Source of the DNA: an uncultured Pseudomonadota bacterium | GTDB lineage: Bacteria; Vulcanimicrobiota; Vulcanimicrobiia; Eremiobacterales; Eremiobacteraceae | Length of the DNA stretch: 64,000 nt | Direction of reading: 5' to 3' | Assembly: GCA_963736005.1 (NCBI GenBank) | Contig: CAVTNB010000001.1 | Coordinates: forward strand, 1,472,001-1,536,000 | Part shown: positions 37,195 to 46,563 of the stretch, one piece after another | Layout of the letters: each line of letters begins with the position of its first letter | How positions within the stretch are numbered: the first letter of the stretch is position 1 | The notes under the pieces: model-generated | Seen by the model: only the letters and a program-made list of their open reading frames with translations | Told to the model about the DNA's origin: nothing | Databases searched by the model: none | Translations under genes and position numbers: made by a program

Positions 37195-38187
37195 GTGAGT
37201 AGAGGTTCGATCTCCGCATTTGTTGCCTTGCTCCTGGTCACGGGTTGTGCGCAAAACAGCCAACATACGGCACCTGCCAATCAAACTGCCAACGTGATGG
37301 CACAGTTGACCATGACGACGCCGGGTTACGTGGCGCCGACGTCTGCACCGCATCCAGAAGAGTTGCCGGGACTACCATCGGGTCATACAATCTTCGTCAA
37401 ACTTGCATTGGTCGATAGGACGCTCCAGATCGCGCCCGGCATGAGATATCATGCGTGGACCTTCAATGGAGGTGTACCGGGCCCGGTGATTCACGCCAGA
37501 GTCGGCGATACAATCGACGTGACGCTCACGAACAGAGCCTCCATCGGTCACTCGATAGATTTTCATGCCGCGCTCGCCCCGCCTAACGTAGCATACCAAA
37601 CTGTGCAGCCTGGGCAAACATTGCATTTCGCGTGGGTCGCGCAGTACCCAGGCGCGTTCCTCTACCACTGCGGCACGCCTCCGGTGCTGGCACACATCAG
37701 CAATGGTATGTATGGGGCGGTCGTGGTGGACCCGCCCGTGGGCTGGGGTCCCTCGGCGCAAGAGTTCGTCTTCGTTCAAAGCGAGTTTTATCCGTCGCTT
37801 TATCCCGGCACAAGCGACGAGTACTATGGAGATATGGCGAAGATGAAAACTAGCCTACCCCAGGTCGTCACGTTCAACGGAGTGGCTTTCCGCTACAAGC
37901 AGAACCCGTTATCGATCAGGGTCGGGCAACTTGTCCGGGTTTTTGTGATTAATGCTGGACCCAGTCATTTCTCCGCGTTCCACGTGATTGGCACGATCTT
38001 GCGGACGACTTTGGTCGACGGCAATCCGCAAAACAAACTCGTTGGGCTTCAGACCATCGCCGTTCCGCCGGGTGGTGGAGCTGTGGCTGAGTTCCAGGTG
38101 GAACAGGCGGGCACATATCCGTTTGTAACCCATTCATTCGGTGATGCTGACGACGGTGCCATGGGAGCATTCATTGCGACCAACTGA
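37195..38187 (+). CDS. nirK: Copper-containing nitrite reductase (lipoprotein)
   Basis: Lipobox VTGC; HSIDFHAA, YHCGTPPVLAHISNGMYG, SAFHVIG, YPFVTHSF (type 1 and type 2 Cu ligands, catalytic Asp/His). Confidence 0.9.
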   Translation: MSRGSISAFVALLLVTGCAQNSQHTAPANQTANVMAQLTMTTPGYVAPTSAPHPEELPGLPSGHTIFVKLALVDRTLQIAPGMRYHAWTFNGGVPGPVIHARVGDTIDVTLTNRASIGHSIDFHAALAPPNVAYQTVQPGQTLHFAWVAQYPGAFLYHCGTPPVLAHISNGMYGAVVVDPPVGWGPSAQEFVFVQSEFYPSLYPGTSDEYYGDMAKMKTSLPQVVTFNGVAFRYKQNPLSIRVGQLVRVFVINAGPSHFSAFHVIGTILRTTLVDGNPQNKLVGLQTIAVPPGGGAVAEFQVEQAGTYPFVTHSFGDADDGAMGAFIATN

Positions 38188-38279
38188 CTGTTGAAGTCAG
38201 CATTTGCCCTAAGCGCGGGAGTACGAGAGCGGTACGCATAAATCCATGATTCGGTCGTAGGCACTAGTGGGGTAACGCG

Positions 38280-38798
38280 ATGTCGTACGGGTCTGACGTC
38301 TTCGTTGTAAACCTCATCCTCGCAACCGGTGTCGTCGTTTTGATGACCCTTGTAGGGTTGTCATCGCGAGCGGGCCCTGTGCCGCAGCTAACGGTCGCGA
38401 TGACAGGTTATGCCATAAGGCGGTGGTGGTTCCTCGCACTCTTGGCAACATTGATTGCTGGATTCTTTCTCACGCTGCCTTATTTCCCGTACCCGCGCGC
38501 TGCCGCCACCGAACCTGTTCGACACTACCAAATCATCGCGCAGCAGTACATGTTTAGCCTCCCTACAGTCGTTCCATTTAATACACCAATCATGTTTGAC
38601 GTCACGTCGCACGATGTTAATCATGGCTTCGGCATCTACGACGATCAAGGACGCTTGATCGGCCAGGTACAGGCAATGCCCAACTACGTCAATCATTTGC
38701 CGTTTACGTTTACCCATCGCGGAATCTATACTGTGCGCTGCCTCGAATACTGCGGCATCGGCCACACCTACATGCACGCGCAGTTCGAGGTACGCTAG
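38280..38798 (+). CDS. Heme-copper oxidase subunit II with CuA (sNOR NorS-like)
   Basis: DVNHGF ... CLEYCGIGHTYM CuA motif. Confidence 0.88.
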   Translation: MSYGSDVFVVNLILATGVVVLMTLVGLSSRAGPVPQLTVAMTGYAIRRWWFLALLATLIAGFFLTLPYFPYPRAAATEPVRHYQIIAQQYMFSLPTVVPFNTPIMFDVTSHDVNHGFGIYDDQGRLIGQVQAMPNYVNHLPFTFTHRGIYTVRCLEYCGIGHTYMHAQFEVR

Positions 38799-38799
38799 C

Positions 38800-40272
38800 A
38801 TGAACATCATCGAAGACGATCTGCGACCAGCACGAATAGTAATGTGGCTCTACCTTGTCACCGGCCTGGCTATCGTCTTCCTCATGCTGCTTCTTGGATT
38901 GGTGCTGCGTGGCGAACAAGCACAATGGATTTCGTTCAGTCCGGCTCTCTTTTATTCGTTTATGACGCTGCACGGCATTGGAATGATCACCGCAGTAACG
39001 ATCGCCGGCATGGGGATGATGTGGTACCTCGTCCGGTGCAATGGTTCACTCGATGCGCGAGTCGCTTATTTCTGTTATGCATCGATAGCGCTTGGCGTGG
39101 TGGCAGTCTTGGTTGCGGTGCTTATCGGACGATTTGCCGCGGCTTGGACCTTCCTCTATCCATTGCCCTTTGTGGGAGCGACGTGGCCATCGTGGGCAAC
39201 AGGTTCGTTCTTGTTTGGCGTCGCGCTCGTCGATCTCGGATGGCTTATCTTTTGTATTCAAATCCTTGCAGCGAGCGTGTCGCGATATGGAGGGCTTGGC
39301 AGCGCGCTCGGCTTTGATTATATTTTCCATCGGGTCTCGTTTGATGCGGCGGGCAAGCACCCGCCGGAACCGCAAGCTATCGCAGCCACAGTGGTCTCTC
39401 TTGACGGCGCTATTACTGGCGCCGCCGGTATGGTGATCGGCACTGCGCTCATCGCGCACTGGCTAAATCCATCTATCGTGCTCGACTCCCTGTGGGCGAA
39501 GAATGTAACTTATTTCTTCGGACATTCGATCGCCAACCTTACGATCTACATGGCGATCGCCGGCGTCTACGTGGCATTACCATTTTATACGAAACGCGAA
39601 TATCATACGTCGCCCGTGTTCGTCGTGGCGTGGTGGGGCACGCTACTGTTCGTGCTCATCGCATACTTCCATCACCTCTACATGGACTTCGTGCAGTTTC
39701 GGGCTCTGCAATATGTTGGAGAGGCTGCATCCTATCTCGCGGCAGTGCCCGTGGCTGTGGTAACTGTCTACGGAAGCGCGCTGCTCGTCTACCGTTCGGG
39801 CATGCGCTGGAGTCTCGGCTCACTGCTGATTTTTGCGGGTCTCATCGGATGGCTGGTTGGAGGGATTGGTGCGTTATTGGACGCGACTGTACCCTTCAAT
39901 TTCGACTTGCACAACACGCTATGGGTTCCTGGCCATTTCCACACCTACTTGCTCGAGGGCGTCTTGCTGTTCATCCTTGGGTGGGTGTTCTTCATGCTCG
40001 AACAGCGTCGGGGGCAAATCACGAGCGCTGCCGTACGTTGGCTGATAGGGCTCACCTTCTTTGGGGGCGGGGGAGTATTCTTATTGGGATTCTACGCGGC
40101 AGGAGCAGCCGGCGTACCCCGTCGCTTTGCAATCGAACCAACCCCTGGACCGCACATCGCAGCGTGGTCAACCGTCGGAGCATTGATTCTTGTCGTTGGC
40201 CTTCTTCTGATCATCGGTGAAGCGCTGCGCCTAGCATTTGCTGGAAGGAAAGTGGAGCCCGAAAAATGTTGA
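38800..40272 (+). CDS. Heme-copper oxidase superfamily subunit I, sNOR-type nitric oxide reductase (NorY-like)
   Basis: MTLHG, FFGHSIANLTIY (Asn where O2 reductases have the cross-linked Tyr), FHHLYMD, HFH, RRF. Confidence 0.8.
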   Translation: MNIIEDDLRPARIVMWLYLVTGLAIVFLMLLLGLVLRGEQAQWISFSPALFYSFMTLHGIGMITAVTIAGMGMMWYLVRCNGSLDARVAYFCYASIALGVVAVLVAVLIGRFAAAWTFLYPLPFVGATWPSWATGSFLFGVALVDLGWLIFCIQILAASVSRYGGLGSALGFDYIFHRVSFDAAGKHPPEPQAIAATVVSLDGAITGAAGMVIGTALIAHWLNPSIVLDSLWAKNVTYFFGHSIANLTIYMAIAGVYVALPFYTKREYHTSPVFVVAWWGTLLFVLIAYFHHLYMDFVQFRALQYVGEAASYLAAVPVAVVTVYGSALLVYRSGMRWSLGSLLIFAGLIGWLVGGIGALLDATVPFNFDLHNTLWVPGHFHTYLLEGVLLFILGWVFFMLEQRRGQITSAAVRWLIGLTFFGGGGVFLLGFYAAGAAGVPRRFAIEPTPGPHIAAWSTVGALILVVGLLLIIGEALRLAFAGRKVEPEKC

Positions 40273-40724
40273 CCATTGGCCGCGTGGTTCTCTGGTTGCT
40301 TGTGGTCGCAGGAGCCGGAGCTCTCTTTGCCCCCATTTGGCACCCTGGCGAGCACTTGGCGACGCTCGTGCACCATTTAGCGCATGCAGTGGTTCTTGTG
40401 GGAGGGTGTGCACTGGGACTAGCGATCGCGCAGCCAAGGCCAACAATGTCTGAACAGACGTGGTGGCTCGTGCCTGCAATCGGCGCCTCGCTCGTCGTCA
40501 TGCTGCTCATGTGGCCGTCGCTCTACGAGGCTACCGAATCGTCCGTGTTGCTGCACCTTCTCGATCACCTTGCCCTCGCTGTGTGTGGCTTCACCGCGGC
40601 ATATGCTGGTCAGCGATATCGGTTTGGCGCGGGTTGGATACTCGCTGGAGTGGTTCTTCTGATGGCGATCACCGCGGCTGGTGGCTTTGGGGGTCTTATT
40701 CGCGGATCGTATTCGCAGCTCTGA
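40266..40724 (+). CDS. His-rich membrane protein (CtaG/DUF1404-like fragment)
   Basis: HHLAH and HLLDH in TM helices; overlaps the subunit I stop. Confidence 0.6.
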   Translation: MLTIGRVVLWLLVVAGAGALFAPIWHPGEHLATLVHHLAHAVVLVGGCALGLAIAQPRPTMSEQTWWLVPAIGASLVVMLLMWPSLYEATESSVLLHLLDHLALAVCGFTAAYAGQRYRFGAGWILAGVVLLMAITAAGGFGGLIRGSYSQL

Positions 40725-40736
40725 GAGCCGGATTTT

Positions 40737-41192
40737 ATGCCGTTCGAAGCTCGTCTCTTCATTAAGACCGGCATCGTATACATGCTTGTGACATTTCTCT
40801 TCGGTGCTATTTTGCTTGCCGCAGAAGGTCTCGGACATACGGCACCATTCGTAGTTGACGTCGAACATGGTCACGCTGGCTTTGTCGGTTGGCTCGTCAA
40901 CGTCGTTATCGGCGTCGCCTTGTGGATGTTTCCCCTCTCCAAGGAATCATTTCCAACCTCAGCAGGTCGCTACCCACCGCGTGCTGCGCTCGTGTGCTGG
41001 GGATGCCTTAACGTTGGGCTTCTGATCCGTCTCTTCGTCGAACCATGGTATCAGCTTGGTGGCCATTCAGTCGTAGCCGGTGCAGCTCTGGTCGTGTCCG
41101 CAGTGCTGCAGTTGTCGGCAGTCGCGATCTTCGCTTTCATCGTGTGGCATCGCATCCGTCCTCCTTCGCGCCCCGCGCCGGGCGTGGGATGA
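40737..41192 (+). CDS. Four-TM membrane protein with HxHxxxxGW motif
   Basis: HGHAGFVGW, GVALWMFP. Confidence 0.7.
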   Translation: MPFEARLFIKTGIVYMLVTFLFGAILLAAEGLGHTAPFVVDVEHGHAGFVGWLVNVVIGVALWMFPLSKESFPTSAGRYPPRAALVCWGCLNVGLLIRLFVEPWYQLGGHSVVAGAALVVSAVLQLSAVAIFAFIVWHRIRPPSRPAPGVG

Positions 41193-42415
41193 GGGTAGAC
41201 CCGCATCGGTCTCCTCCTTGGATTCCACCATTTGGGCTTGTGGCTGGCCACGTCGCTCACGGTGTTTCGTGGATCGTGCTGTGGGCGACTGGCCTTGATG
41301 GTCTTGGTGACAGAACCCGGGGCCTCGCGTGGGTGCACTTGGTTGGGCTCGCGTGGATCACCGTCGTGGCGCTCTCCATCCTCATCCACGTCATTCCTGA
41401 GTTCTGTAATGTCCAATGGCGCGGTGAGCGTTACGCGCGTGCATCCATCGTTGCGCTGGCAATTGGGGCATATGCCTTAGCCACTAGTTTTTGGCTCGAC
41501 GCGCCGAGGTTGATAATGTGGAGTGCGGTTCTTGTTAGCGCCGCCCTCGCGGTTTATCTCGGCGCAGCACTCACAACCCTCTCGACTGTCGGCACCGACC
41601 GCATTGCGAGGGCCGTTGCGCGAGCACTGGGAGTCGTGCTCGCGATGCTTGCGGCCACGGCAGCGATCGGACTTGCTATGGGTACTGCACTCGCGGGCGG
41701 CCCAGGCACAGCCATTCTCAGTGTCGCGCCAGCGATTCACGCGCATCTCGGCGCTGTTGGCTGGCTCTCAATCCTCATCATGGGTGTCTCAATGCGCACT
41801 CTCGGCCCCATTGCAGGTAGCCGTCCGGCCAGCGCGGTCGCACACAGAATAACGGGAAGTTTAAGCATCGTAGGCATTTTGTTGCTGATCGCCGGGCTCA
41901 TCGCAAGAATATCTGCGCTCTCATGGCTCGGCGCCATCGCGCTCGCTGTCGCGTTCATCGTCTACCTTGTCGAACTAGGCGGCGTTCTGCTTTCAGCGAG
42001 TGTCGGACATCGTCCGCCACAAGCATTCATCGCGGCTGCAGGCGTCTGGCTTTTACTCACCATAATGCTTGGTTTTGGCACTCTCGCGGGATTCAAGTGG
42101 CAGGCCGCCTATGTCTTCGTTGGCCTTATGGGATGGATAGGCCAAATGGTACTCGGACATCTGCACCACATCGGGATACGGCTGCTCGCTACGACAGCAC
42201 GCGGTGAGGATGACGAGACCGAACCCGGAGAACTACTCTGGCTGCCGCTCACCTGGCTGACGTTCGTAATGTTTCAACTCGCGATTGTGTGCGGCGTTGC
42301 AGGCTTGCTGGCAAACAACAACGCTGGTGTTGCTGTCGCTGGCGGAACCGGCCTCGTAGCATGGTTGGTGATGACCTTCAACGTCGGTGGGGCATGGCGG
42401 CGTGCGGCTGCCTAG
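41189..42415 (+). CDS. NnrS-like polytopic membrane protein
   Basis: Repeated H.H...GW motifs (VHLVGLAW, HAHLGAVGW); ATGA coupling. Confidence 0.6.
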   Translation: MRVDPHRSPPWIPPFGLVAGHVAHGVSWIVLWATGLDGLGDRTRGLAWVHLVGLAWITVVALSILIHVIPEFCNVQWRGERYARASIVALAIGAYALATSFWLDAPRLIMWSAVLVSAALAVYLGAALTTLSTVGTDRIARAVARALGVVLAMLAATAAIGLAMGTALAGGPGTAILSVAPAIHAHLGAVGWLSILIMGVSMRTLGPIAGSRPASAVAHRITGSLSIVGILLLIAGLIARISALSWLGAIALAVAFIVYLVELGGVLLSASVGHRPPQAFIAAAGVWLLLTIMLGFGTLAGFKWQAAYVFVGLMGWIGQMVLGHLHHIGIRLLATTARGEDDETEPGELLWLPLTWLTFVMFQLAIVCGVAGLLANNNAGVAVAGGTGLVAWLVMTFNVGGAWRRAAA

Positions 42416-42813
42416 TCTTTCGATTAAAATTGGAGTCCTGATAAGAAACCTGCGCGCCAATTGGGCCGACCGTGGCCGCATGGAAACGAAAATATCTAGC
42501 ACGCCGAAAATCGGCGCAAAGTCTTACCAAACATGGGGCGGTGAAGACATCGAGTTTTCGCCGCCCTTCGCATCTCTGCGCCGATCTGCGCCCCATAAGT
42601 GGTCAAATAAGTGGTCAAATTGCTGATGTCCAAGATCGCGATCGCATCGGGAGCGGCGGTGAAACGTTTTGGGCTGACCTGTCTGCTGGCCTATTGCAAT
42701 CGAGTCACTCGTGCCCGGCTGCGACTCGCCAGCTGAGCGGAACCGCGACAGATGATGACAAAGGGCGCCTCGGCGTCAGGTCCCCACCTAAACCGACATC
42801 GGAGGGCGAATTG

Positions 42814-43374
42814 ATGAATCAAGAGACGTTAAGCACTGTAGCGGCTGTCGGAACGTTCATCGTCATCGCGGCAACGGCGATCGCCGCAATCGTGCAGCTG
42901 CGTCACCTGCGCACAAGCAATCAACTCACCGGTCTGCTCAACATCCTCGGCCGGTCGGAAGATCCACAGTTTTCGGAGTGGCGCGAAGCCACGCGCAAGA
43001 TCGCGATGCACGACATAACGGATGCTGCGTATCGCAAGGGCATTGAGGAGCACACCTTCGATCGTCGAACTGCTCCGTGGCTGCATCTCTACAACTGGTA
43101 CGATTACATCGGAAGTCTGGTGAAACAGCAGCTCGTCCCCGAACAATCGGTGCTGGACGTATTCAGTTTCGTGATGACGCAAGACTGGGAACGGGGCCAG
43201 GACATCATCGCCGTGGCGCGGCGCACCGTAGGGCCAGCGGTGTGGGAGAACTTTGAGTATCTCGTGGCCCGGTCGCACATCTGGCACAAAGCGCACTCAA
43301 AGGGCGCATATCCGCGCAACGCGCCGCGGATTCCGGTGGAAGACCGCTGGCTCGCTGTCGACCACCCTGCTTGA
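42814..43374 (+). CDS. DUF4760-like protein
   Basis: GGAGG RBS; N-terminal TM helix, IGSLVK, WENFEYLV. Confidence 0.65.
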   Translation: MNQETLSTVAAVGTFIVIAATAIAAIVQLRHLRTSNQLTGLLNILGRSEDPQFSEWREATRKIAMHDITDAAYRKGIEEHTFDRRTAPWLHLYNWYDYIGSLVKQQLVPEQSVLDVFSFVMTQDWERGQDIIAVARRTVGPAVWENFEYLVARSHIWHKAHSKGAYPRNAPRIPVEDRWLAVDHPA

Positions 43375-44369: not shown

Positions 44370-45806
44370 TCAGCCGTGGAGCCACTGGACAAAGCGGCGA
44401 TCGTGACGCAGCAGATCCAAGCGTGGATCCAGCGCAAAGAGCGCGCGATCCGAAAGCGGCATGCGACCTAGCCACGCGAAGGCTTCGTTCGGCCGGCCAT
44501 TTGCTGAGTACGCTAGGGCGACAAGCAAAGGATAATCTCGATCCTTTTCGGCGAGCTGCTCGACCGCGTGTAACGCTCGACCGGCGCGCTCCCGTTGCCC
44601 TGTCGTTGCGTACACATACGCCAGGGTACCGCTTGCTACAAGCGCATTGGATGGGTCAGCCGCCAGACGCTGGACGTCTTGTATCGCCGACGGGTATTGC
44701 CTTACTTCTTCGTGCGCGGCTGCAAGCAACAACGGAGCAGCCTCGGAAGCAAAGAAATCATCCTTGTCGAGTTTGGCATAAGCAATCGCGTTTTCGTAAT
44801 CGCGGCTCATATAGTAGTCCAGTGCAAGCAGATAATCGATGCTTGGCAAGGTGACGTCGAGATTGGAAGCCCGCTGGAGTTCGGCGCGCGCGAGGCCGAG
44901 GTCACCCTGCCACAAGAGGATCGCGCCGTACCAGAGATGCGCGACGGCTAGGTCCGGTTCGATTCCAACCGCCTGCTTGAGGTCGCCGGCCGCCGCACGG
45001 TTGTTCCCATCGAGGTCGAACTCAACGAAGCCCTTGGCAGCGTGAGCGATCGCGGACGTGTGGTCGAGTGAGACGGCACGCTGGGAAAGCTTCTCAGCAG
45101 CTAAGCTGGCCACAAGACCTGAGGGGCTGCCTTCCCAGATGTCCGCAAGCTTAGCATATGCTATCGCCTCACCCGCGTAGCCGACCGGACTTTGCGGGGC
45201 GGCATTCACGACCAGTCGAAAATCGTGGACGCTCTGCTTCAAATCCGCCTCGGTCGTTCCTCGCCAATAGTACCAACCGAGCGCGTCGGCGTTTTCTGCT
45301 GCCGGTGTTAAAGAGGCGGGAGGTACAAGCGCATGTTTGTCGGCCGTGTCGAACCGAATCACGATGGCCAACAAGACGCCGGCGGCCAGCGCGGCGGCGA
45401 TGAGTATAGGAGCAGACATCCGCTTACCGACCCGAGTCGCTCCGAGGTCGCGCTTTGTCACCGGGTGTGTGAAGCGGTAGCCGCGTTTTGGCAGTGTCTC
45501 GATAAACGTTTCGTTCGACGTCATTTCGAATTGACGGCGCAGCATGTAGATGTTTTGAGAAAGATTGGCTTCTTCGACGACTGGCCCGTCCCACACTGAT
45601 TCGAGTAACTCGTCCTTTGATACGAAGCGACCGGCATTGTCGAGCAGCACAAGCAGGGTCTTAACGACCTTCGGGGCTAGCGGCAAGACGGCGTCGCGAT
45701 ATTTCAGCGTCAACTCGTCCCTGCAGACGCGATAGGCGCCAAATTGGTACTCGAAGCCACGCAGCGGCGTTACTTTCGGCGCGTTCTTGATCACTTCTTG
45801 AGACAT
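44370..45806 (-). CDS. Membrane-anchored winged-helix (CadC/OmpR-type) plus TPR regulator
   Basis: VSKDELLESVW...VEEANLSQNIYMLRR...IETLPKRGYRF, TM helix, TPRs, DPRLD.LR.D.RF. Confidence 0.85.
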   Translation of the reverse strand: MSQEVIKNAPKVTPLRGFEYQFGAYRVCRDELTLKYRDAVLPLAPKVVKTLLVLLDNAGRFVSKDELLESVWDGPVVEEANLSQNIYMLRRQFEMTSNETFIETLPKRGYRFTHPVTKRDLGATRVGKRMSAPILIAAALAAGVLLAIVIRFDTADKHALVPPASLTPAAENADALGWYYWRGTTEADLKQSVHDFRLVVNAAPQSPVGYAGEAIAYAKLADIWEGSPSGLVASLAAEKLSQRAVSLDHTSAIAHAAKGFVEFDLDGNNRAAAGDLKQAVGIEPDLAVAHLWYGAILLWQGDLGLARAELQRASNLDVTLPSIDYLLALDYYMSRDYENAIAYAKLDKDDFFASEAAPLLLAAAHEEVRQYPSAIQDVQRLAADPSNALVASGTLAYVYATTGQRERAGRALHAVEQLAEKDRDYPLLVALAYSANGRPNEAFAWLGRMPLSDRALFALDPRLDLLRHDRRFVQWLHG

Positions 45807-45858
45807 TGTTGAACAAAGCTTTGAGACGTTTCTGAAGCTCACCTGGTAAGGTGGCTCA

Positions 45859-46563
45859 ATGATAACTCGCTCGTGGAGTCTATACACGCGTTTCGCGCTT
45901 GCAACAGTTGTCTTGTGGCTCGCAGCCTGCGGTGGGGGCGGAGGAGGCGGAGGAGGCTCAATGACGGGACCGACGCCGCCCCCGGGGCCATCGCCGAGCC
46001 CGCAGCCGTACTTGCCGCTCGCAGTTGGCAATACGTGGACGTATGCTTGCTACCTCGGCACGCCGACGCCTGGCGCTTCGACTTTTCCAAAGACGAATCA
46101 GGTTATCGGTTCGACGACAATCGGTAGCACGTTGACGTACGAATATGCCGAGCAGATTCCAAGCTCCCCAACGCTCGGCACGACACAAATTCAACTTTTG
46201 GCCAACGACGCAAATGACAATACGGTCCTCTATGGCTATATGGCGAACCCGACTGCGCCGCCGACCGTAGTGACGCCCACCATCATCGTCGCAGCGAGTC
46301 CGGGTCCGAGCAATGCCCCCTTCGATTATCCGGCGGAAGGCGGTGGAACGGTGAGCCGCGTTTTCTGCTGCAATGGGCCGACGAATGAAACAACCTTTGG
46401 AGTCTTTACCGTCGCCGAGTATTATGACGGTTCGCATACGGTGAGATCGGCAACGGACGGCTACGGCTACGCGAGGGGCAAGGGAGTTATGGAGGAAGAC
46501 CACAACTTCAACAATCCCGCGACCAGGATTGATTGCGTTATTACGGCGACACCCCCGCCATAA
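45859..46563 (+). CDS. Lipoprotein of unknown function
   Basis: Lipobox LAAC, Gly/Pro linker, YLPLAVGNTWTY, YARGKG. Confidence 0.75.
   Translation: MITRSWSLYTRFALATVVLWLAACGGGGGGGGGSMTGPTPPPGPSPSPQPYLPLAVGNTWTYACYLGTPTPGASTFPKTNQVIGSTTIGSTLTYEYAEQIPSSPTLGTTQIQLLANDANDNTVLYGYMANPTAPPTVVTPTIIVAASPGPSNAPFDYPAEGGGTVSRVFCCNGPTNETTFGVFTVAEYYDGSHTVRSATDGYGYARGKGVMEEDHNFNNPATRIDCVITATPPP

Follow-up and report, generated by a model that had tools for sequence, protein, structure and literature searches.

In a 64,000-nucleotide stretch of contig CAVTNB010000001.1 (the window, whose own numbering we use throughout), which belongs to an uncultured soil bacterium of the Eremiobacterota, we analysed six genes, g1 to g6, that follow one another on the + strand between positions 37195 and 42415. 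We propose, with a probability of about two in three, that this locus encodes a short periplasm-facing route from nitrite to nitrous oxide (N2O), in which a copper nitrite reductase, NirK, would be followed by a three-subunit nitric oxide (NO) reductase of the sNOR type. In the mechanism that we envisage, NirK, anchored by a lipid at the membrane, would reduce nitrite to NO, and the sNOR, composed of the CuA-bearing subunit II g2, the subunit I g3 and, as a third and obligate subunit, the small membrane protein g4, would convert NO to N2O, with Asn246 of g3 standing in for the tyrosine that O2 reduction needs. The protein g4 would hold a metal, probably copper, either for delivery to CuA or for electron relay towards it, and g5 and g6 would form a separate conserved pair that accompanies sNOR, NirK and other heme-copper oxidases, most likely binding heme and metal and taking part in NO or oxidase-linked chemistry. 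The sNOR family itself is said to have been defined by Hemp and Gennis, together with Murali et al. in 2024. The first-pass annotation of the window had described six co-directional and mostly tightly coupled genes, and the open reading frame (ORF) listing bears this out: one nucleotide separates g2 from g3, g3 and g4 overlap by 7 nucleotides (nt), 12 nt lie between g4 and g5, g5 and g6 overlap by 4 nt (junctions +1, -7, +12 and -4), and the only sizeable gap in the cluster is the 92 nt between g1 and g2. All six proteins have homologues at E values far past chance.

The protein encoded by g3 (38800..40272, +, 490 amino acids), the predicted sNOR subunit I, belongs to COX1 (PF00115, 130.9 bits), and its closest structure is the B-family ba3 oxidase of Thermus (E 6e-12). 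Residues 239-250 read FFGHSIANLTIY, and N246, which lies four residues past the helix VI histidine H242 just as the first-pass annotation had noticed, aligns with Tyr237 of Thermus ba3, the cross-link tyrosine. The key residues of g3 are H58, H242, N246, Y250, Y257, V258, H291, H292, T322, H379 and H381, among which the canonical histidines H58, H242, H291, H292, H379 and H381 are invariant across 25 relatives, and in the alignment N246 is invariant throughout the g3 clade. A search of 1.84 billion representatives returned 573 relatives of g3, and when 33 full-length sequences (g3 and 32 representatives) were aligned, 25 carried the HxxxN signature, six more distant ones kept the tyrosine and two were missing the helix VI histidine. 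Dataset S1 of PMC11214002 tabulates the diagnostic residues as N-243 (B. azotoformans sNOR), Y-247, Y-254, E-255 and T-319 for sNOR, and as N-245, Y-248, Y-256, S-317 and T-320 for bNOR. N246, Y250, Y257 and T322 of g3 stand at the sNOR offsets (N, +4, +11, +76) and match P0140, a Cytobacillus protein with the sNOR pattern, and at N+12, where the sNOR glutamate is expected, g3 has V258. The positions specific to bNOR are occupied by other residues, namely I249 for the tyrosine at +3, V318 for the serine at +72 and V321 for the threonine at +75.

The phylogeny of heme-copper oxidases points the same way. In a tree of 63 rows (IQ-TREE, a quick search without bootstraps), g3 falls in a single clade that gathers 55 of the 55 HxxxN rows (SH-aLRT 97) and stands apart from the six Tyr-bearing relatives and from the two other oxidases of the genome. 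The anchors of the tree are the Cytobacillus protein and the genome tables of PMC11214002, the sequences of the ammonia-oxidiser sNOR and of the B. azotoformans sNOR and bNOR being absent from it. The HxxxN clade holds the Cytobacillus protein, with its exact sNOR residue pattern, as well as the subunits I of loci L005, L010 and L040 (65%, 62% and 51% identity to g3), whose contigs belong to the assemblies SCRA01, JABEUX01 and JABEVB01, where SNOR is the sole fitting class in Datasets S6 and S8 of PMC11214002. Since relatives of g3 thus lie in genomes scored SNOR by Murali et al., g3 is an sNOR in the sense of those authors, and since genomes whose sole fitting enzyme is Glu-less nevertheless figure under SNOR in Datasets S6 and S8, the classification, as it appears in these datasets, does not require the glutamate. 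We file g3 as a predicted sNOR sensu lato, in a Glu-less subclade, and the claim of an sNOR-type enzyme made from the sequence at first sight agrees with the active-site residues, with the tree and with the cross-reference to the datasets of PMC11214002.

Directly upstream, g2 (38280..38798, +, 172 amino acids) encodes the subunit II with the CuA centre: it is a COX2 protein (PF00116) in which the CuA residues H115, C154, E156, C158, H162 and M165 are complete, its closest solved chains are the subunit II and CuA domains of Thermus ba3 (E about 1e-9), and in 79 of 80 related loci a gene of this type comes before that of subunit I. The first gene, g1 (37195..38187, +, 330 amino acids), consists of two cupredoxin domains (Pfam Cu-oxidase_3 and Cu-oxidase_2) behind a lipobox, VTGC, with Cys18, and its best solved relatives in the PDB are copper nitrite reductases (E 6e-64) of the AniA/Geobacillus-like class. 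In the alignment to solved nitrite reductases H119, D122, H124, H158, C159, H167, M172, H263 and H313 are kept, of which we take H119, C159, H167 and M172 to bind the type-1 copper, H124, H158 and H313 to bind the type-2 copper, and Asp122 and His263 to form the catalytic pair. The PDB entries 3x1e, 3wkq and 1kbv are presumably Geobacillus and Neisseria AniA-type nitrite reductases. Judged by these residues, g1 is a genuine NirK with complete copper ligands, and the lipoprotein NirK of the first-pass annotation stands. It scores 180.5 bits against TIGR02376, the NCBI equivalog model of NirK, below the cut-off of 296.3, so that automated rules may miss such a NirK or give it a generic name.

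The subunit I is prone to be misnamed: among the 120 homologues listed, every functional source name is a cytochrome c oxidase name, and the mis-annotation of sNOR as cytochrome c oxidase, which had also been foreseen for this locus, is noted in PMC11388526. The suggestion that the organism is an unrecognised source of N2O holds in part. We found no nosZ in the genome (84% complete), where only CuA-domain matches turned up. The position of nirK directly in front of an sNOR makes this soil Eremiobacterota organism a plausible nitrite-to-N2O producer, for which no N2O reductase was found. On the other side, 11 genomes of Eremiobacterota are already listed with sNOR in Dataset S8 of PMC11214002, where each of them has nirK = 0, and both the sNOR family and its occurrence in the phylum are, in this sense, already catalogued there. 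What is new is the Glu-less, SenC-less architecture, predicted to have three subunits, the g5/g6 pair with its subunit-I fold, and the juxtaposition of nirK and sNOR.

The make-up of the cassette separates two types of locus among the 78 related loci with a readable helix VI motif. In 73 of them the residue at N+12 is non-acidic, and here g4 is a separate gene in 45 loci, is fused to subunit I in 7, is probably fused in 14 (ORFs longer than 600 amino acids) and is lacking in 7, and 6 of these 7 loci break off no more than about 150 bases from the g3 match; a SenC-like gene occurs in only 1 of the 73. The remaining 5 loci, from Proteobacteria, Acidobacteria and Bdellovibrionota, have Glu or Asp at N+12, with g4 in 0/5 and a SenC-like gene in 4/5, and the SCO1-SenC Pfam family was confirmed for 3 of these SenC-like genes. 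According to PMC4940428, the sNOR cassette of ammonia oxidisers is norSY-senC-orf1; no SenC-like ORF was found after subunit I in the window, whose locus is of the Glu-less, SenC-less type and departs in this from the ammonia-oxidiser cassette. Two long frames run over both subunit I and g4, in L054 (Capillimicrobium, 1900 amino acids) and in L032 (Planctomycetota, 816 amino acids), and are probably read-through ORF artefacts of high-GC DNA or else larger fusions.

The gene that marks the Glu-less type, g4 (40266..40724, +), encodes a five-helix membrane protein of 152 amino acids with no match in Pfam or NCBIfam. The motif HHLAH at residues 36-40 confirms the His-rich motif read there at first sight, as do those of g5 and g6 described below, and H36, H37, H40, M82, H97, H101, G123 and G140 are invariant among its homologues, for which we kept first-round phmmer matches only and discarded an iterative hidden Markov model (HMM) set that had drifted to 187-227 ORFs. 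A start codon for g4 can be placed a few bases from the stop of subunit I in 45 loci, most of which show a 4-nt overlap. Actinomycetota have g4 as a C-terminal extension of subunit I in which HHLxH, M..P..Y and HxxxH are kept, and in 9 of the 28 members aligned a cytochrome c domain follows at the C-terminus. By the positive-inside rule, g4 would run N-in through five helices to C-out, a topology that fits both kinds of fusion and would bring five His and a Met near the periplasmic face, where they probably form a metal site, most plausibly for copper. A modelled complex of g3 and g4 scored 0.81 against 0.01 for the best control, with a partner pLDDT of at least 76 and runs agreeing in at least 70% of contacts, a mark that 116 of 157 solved complexes attain, as do 2 of 215 mismatched pairs, and that supports binding without showing it. 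The fusions, the translational coupling and the modelled interface argue for a stoichiometric subunit and not for a free assembly factor, as g4 had been called at first, and we regard g4 as most likely a permanent third sNOR subunit in the place of SenC. Two other families came up as candidates for g4 and were rejected: Caa3_CtaG (PF09678) does not match g4 itself, only 1 of 28 homologues touching it (E 6e-5, 23 bits, cut-off 27.7), and DUF1404 was met by 2 of 28 members, all below cut-offs.

To see how these genes are distributed, we surveyed 400 other Eremiobacterota genomes (401 with the genome of the window). NirK orthologues occur in 23 of the 400, one of them a fragment with a stop, and sNOR-clade genes of at least 55% identity in 58, with a different, roughly 39% identical sNOR lineage in 6 further genomes; g6 is found in 132 and g5 in 63. 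These counts include genomes flagged as unpublished, namely G264 and G238 among the 58 with sNOR, G128, G264 and G213 among the 132 with g6, and G128 both among the 63 with g5 and among the g5-g6 adjacencies; none of them supplies a locus cited here by name. As to the accessory genes, g6 is present in 55 of the 58 sNOR genomes, against 77 of the 342 without sNOR. Its distance from sNOR is at most 10 kb in 20 genomes (at most 1.2 kb in 17 of them), its distance from NirK is at most 3.1 kb in 4, and g5 lies within 1 kb of g6 in 42. In 20 g6 neighbourhoods we found NirK in 4, the cbb3-type CcoN/FixO in 2, another COX1/COX2 pair in 1, hemE/hemF/hemH in 1, a NarI-like gene in 1, a CusF-like gene in 1 and the recurrent order prfC-PALP enzyme-g6-CMD in 5. 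In L124 (G245:C22:244000-259000) NirK and a g6 homologue diverge at a distance of 145 bp, and after g6 come a PTA_PTB-like gene, hemE and the genes of coproporphyrinogen oxidase and ferrochelatase; in L127 (G351:C93) and L143 (G103:C11) g6 homologues adjoin the cbb3-type CcoN/FixO, with g5 too in L143, and L127 has a nirK fragment at its contig end. In a genome of the same family (G187:C103:4824-6269) an sNOR subunit I homologue with one in-frame TGA, which may be a pseudogene or a sequencing error, is followed by g5 and g6.

The genome of the window is the only one of the 401 with nirK and sNOR on one contig. L004, the closest relative (g3 80% identical), shares g2-g6 alone with the window, and at NirK loci elsewhere in the phylum nirK is the sole gene in common with it. 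The nirK-sNOR module first proposed is not a conserved unit: none of the 80 related loci contains NirK, and in the 400 other genomes NirK and sNOR never share a contig. The junction itself is no obvious assembly artefact, since it is bridged by a 400-nt contig of the independent Logan assembly of a public soil run, 100% identical over 38100-38499, which takes in the nirK stop and the g2 start (a run that may itself be the source sample), and since a related strain in a second public run, from another study, has pieces at 95-99% identity to nirK, g3, g4, g5/g6 and the genes on either side. Together with g2-g6, nirK may form one transcription unit.

The last two genes encode a pair of membrane proteins. 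g5 (40737..41192, +, 151 amino acids), the partner gene of g6, has four helices and the motif HGHAGFVGW (44-52), an HxHxxxxGW in which H44 and H46 are invariant; it matches no Pfam or NCBIfam family. g6 (41189..42415, +, 408 amino acids) has the corresponding HAHLGAVGW (184-192), and its start was set from homologue starts at ATG 41189, the ORF itself being listed from 41045. The HxHxxxxGW helix pair of g5 resembles helices V-VI of g6 (hhalign probability 77.5%, E 1.9e-5). None of the 130 homologues of g6 has a functional name ("hypothetical protein" where named), and a precomputed Pfam domain occurs on just one, PF07931 on a longer protein of 543 amino acids. Its AF2 model (pLDDT 95.3, 12 helices) has a heme-copper-oxidase subunit-I-like fold: each of the 49 Foldseek matches in the PDB at E <= 0.001 is a chain of subunit I, CcoN or NorB (TMq mostly 0.63-0.76, NorB 0.56), and there is no match to PF00115. 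H50 (helix II), H184 (VI), H219 (VII), H274 (before IX) and H327 (X) are invariant and H324 (X) is kept in at least 90% of sequences, which gives each of the classical ligand helices (II, VI, VII) one conserved His and helix X two, with a spacing unlike the classical one. Among ESM Atlas neighbours, g5 is close to small proteins labelled "COX1 family" and DUF2871, which is a lead only; as an assignment DUF2871 was rejected, g5 giving no match to it, and no function study of DUF2871 turned up in the part of the literature that was retrieved.

These features prompt a joint and quite speculative claim, to which we give a low probability: that g6 with g5 represents an unrecognised and extremely divergent branch of the heme-copper oxidoreductases, a stand-alone subunit-I-like hemoprotein that would handle NO or a related small molecule without a subunit II and would travel with sNOR, NirK and cbb3-type oxidases in Eremiobacterota and beyond, and that in parallel g4 would define a three-subunit, SenC-independent sNOR architecture whose membrane His/Met copper site feeds or matures CuA.

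The role proposed at first for g4, g5 and g6 was that of transient metal or heme assembly factors for sNOR, which would not be parts of the working enzyme. For g4 this could account for the invariant His/Met cluster, for its presence in the place of SenC, the CuA chaperone of canonical cassettes, and for the sub-threshold contact of one homologue with Caa3_CtaG, and for g6, which adjoins hemE, hemF and hemH in G245 and lies near a CusF-like gene in G215, a subunit-I-shaped protein could act as scaffold or heme donor. However, in whole lineages g4 forms an in-frame fusion with subunit I or cytochrome c, which with the modelled interface speaks for a permanent association, 77 genomes that lack sNOR have g5 and g6, g6 has a subunit-I fold itself, and no similarity to known assembly families was found (Caa3_CtaG, for one, has no match in the whole genome). 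We judge the assembly-factor role unlikely, and prefer g4 as a subunit and g5/g6 as a separate pair.

Several observations weigh against the route from nitrite to N2O proposed here. At the level of the enzyme, the V258 of g3 replaces a glutamate that PMC11214002 describes as conserved in the sNOR proton path, and the same source, in its account of the family, predicts NO reduction by sNOR only from the active site common with bNOR and knows of no purified sNOR. The g4 of the window is without the cytochrome c domain of many relatives, and the electron donor is not encoded in the cluster. Neither Nar nor Nap was found in the genome, its two molybdopterin enzymes being NuoG and an Fdh-alpha-like protein, so nitrite must come from outside. 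At the level of the locus, NirK is missing from all 80 related loci, which are all closer relatives and were read with flanks of up to 7 kb; G160 and G245, the only other genomes of the phylum with intact nirK and sNOR, have them on different contigs; and three genomes of the same genus have neither nirK nor sNOR. Between nirK and g2 lies a gap of 92 nt with a small hairpin, in which neither promoter nor terminator was recognised, no NO-responsive regulator was recognised among the neighbours, and the four public runs compared at the locus (8 were found) are DNA contigs, none of them RNA. With regard to g5 and g6, genomes of one phylum are not independent, so that contrasts in co-occurrence are overstated; the 77 g6 genomes without sNOR often place g6 in a housekeeping context (prfC, PALP enzyme, CMD); the profiles of g5 and g6 compared with that of sNOR subunit I gave probabilities of 6.4% and 4.4%, which are not significant; and no significant profile similarity to NnrS was found.

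Part of this has to be weighed together with the explanation that the HxxxN enzyme is no respiratory NO reductase at all, and is instead a low-turnover oxidase or peroxidase-like enzyme, a scavenger that detoxifies NO in an aerobe, or an enzyme of some other small-molecule substrate, beside which nirK came to lie by a recent accident of gene order. The activity of sNOR is a prediction, the nirK-sNOR adjacency is seen in this genome alone, the flanks of g2-g6 differ even from those of L004, the two Tyr-bearing oxidases in the genome speak for an aerobe, and the channel glutamate is absent from g3. Against it, the loss of the cross-link tyrosine is held to exclude O2 reduction in the superfamily, and g3 is the only candidate NO reductase in the genome, since the other two of its three heme-copper subunit I genes keep that tyrosine, and stands beside a NirK that would produce NO. 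Pieces of nirK, sNOR and both flanks recur in the related strain of the other study, and bNOR, whose active site is the same, has been proven to reduce NO electrogenically according to PMC11214002. We consider this explanation improbable, and the nitrite-to-N2O route remains the reading that we favour.

NnrS binds heme and copper. That g6 with g5 would be an NnrS-like membrane hemoprotein of NO stress, a functional equivalent of the NnrS of proteobacterial denitrifiers, is doubtful in our view: its 12 helices, its conserved His, its adjacency to NirK or sNOR in 24 genomes and a nearest ESM Atlas cluster that bears the automatic name "NnrS family protein", with a score of 0.95 and without a common Pfam, are set against PF05940, which is unmatched by g6 at E 10 and throughout the genome, and against a profile comparison with four true NnrS (hhalign probability 1.3%) that is not significant and leaves the Atlas label as a lead only.

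As to the surroundings, the contig that contains the window exceeds 1.9 Mb, and the genome measures 2.84 Mb. The spacer between nirK and the sNOR genes (38188..38279, no strand) has a 6-bp hairpin (CTGACT..AGTCAG) at the nirK stop and nothing convincing as terminator or promoter; between 36000 and 43500 a scan found 6 sites resembling promoters and 10 resembling terminators, where shuffled sequence yielded 3.8 and 8.3 on average, which is uninformative, and an inverted-repeat search of the region upstream of nirK gave nothing like a regulator box. Directly 3' of g6, at 42472-43371 (+), lies a gene for a DUF4760 protein that is not common to L004, and 2 kb downstream of the cluster, at 44370-46031 (-), a 553-amino-acid OmpR/CadC-type winged-helix regulator with TPR repeats and a proline/glycine-rich N-terminus, for which no link to the cluster was established. 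Outside the window, the Fdh-alpha-like molybdopterin gene (L116, G000:C1:1914941-1916212) has one in-frame TGA, which may be a selenocysteine codon or the sign of a broken gene.

The largest sNOR lineage sampled here, from Eremiobacterota, Planctomycetota, Deinococcota, Bacillota and Actinomycetota, differs in make-up from the textbook ammonia-oxidiser cassette, and sNOR-type enzymes may carry a sizeable share of environmental NO reduction. Any attempt at sNOR purification or expression should include g4, and g5/g6, as a widespread unannotated family with an oxidase fold, offers a concrete target for work on NO handling.

Set beside known systems, g2 and g3 resemble the sNOR of Murali et al. 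(PMC11214002) in pairing a CuA subunit II with a B-family-derived subunit I and in having Asn for the cross-link tyrosine with Y(+4), Y(+11) and T(+76), whereas g2-g6 differ from the ammonia-oxidiser sNOR in the Val at N+12, in the lack of a SenC gene, in the extra membrane subunit that g4 would provide, in g5/g6 after the cassette and in nirK before it. The bNOR of Bacillus azotoformans (qCuANOR), which is according to PMC11214002 the only biochemically proven enzyme with a His/Asn active site and is found in Bacillales alone, shares with g3 the His and Asn in helix VI, the CuA donor site and the B-family ancestry, but has Y(+3), S(+72) and T(+75) in its channel where g3 has I249, V318 and V321, and the host here, judged by how its homologues are named, belongs to the Eremiobacterota and not to the Bacillales. 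Thermus thermophilus ba3 has, like g3 and g2, all six canonical His and the CuA ligands, but it keeps Tyr237 where g3 has Asn246, and it reduces O2. The NirK of Geobacillus and the AniA of Neisseria share with g1 the two-cupredoxin build, the lipoprotein signal, the copper ligands and the catalytic Asp/His, all of them kept, and g1 is unlike the standard NirK models in falling short of the NCBI equivalog cut-off. Finally, the heme-copper subunits I CcoN, CtaD and NorB have, like g6, 12 helices with His on helices II, VI, VII and X, but g6 has one His and not two on helix VII, HxxH in place of HxH on helix X, a further invariant His ahead of helix IX and no adjoining subunit II.

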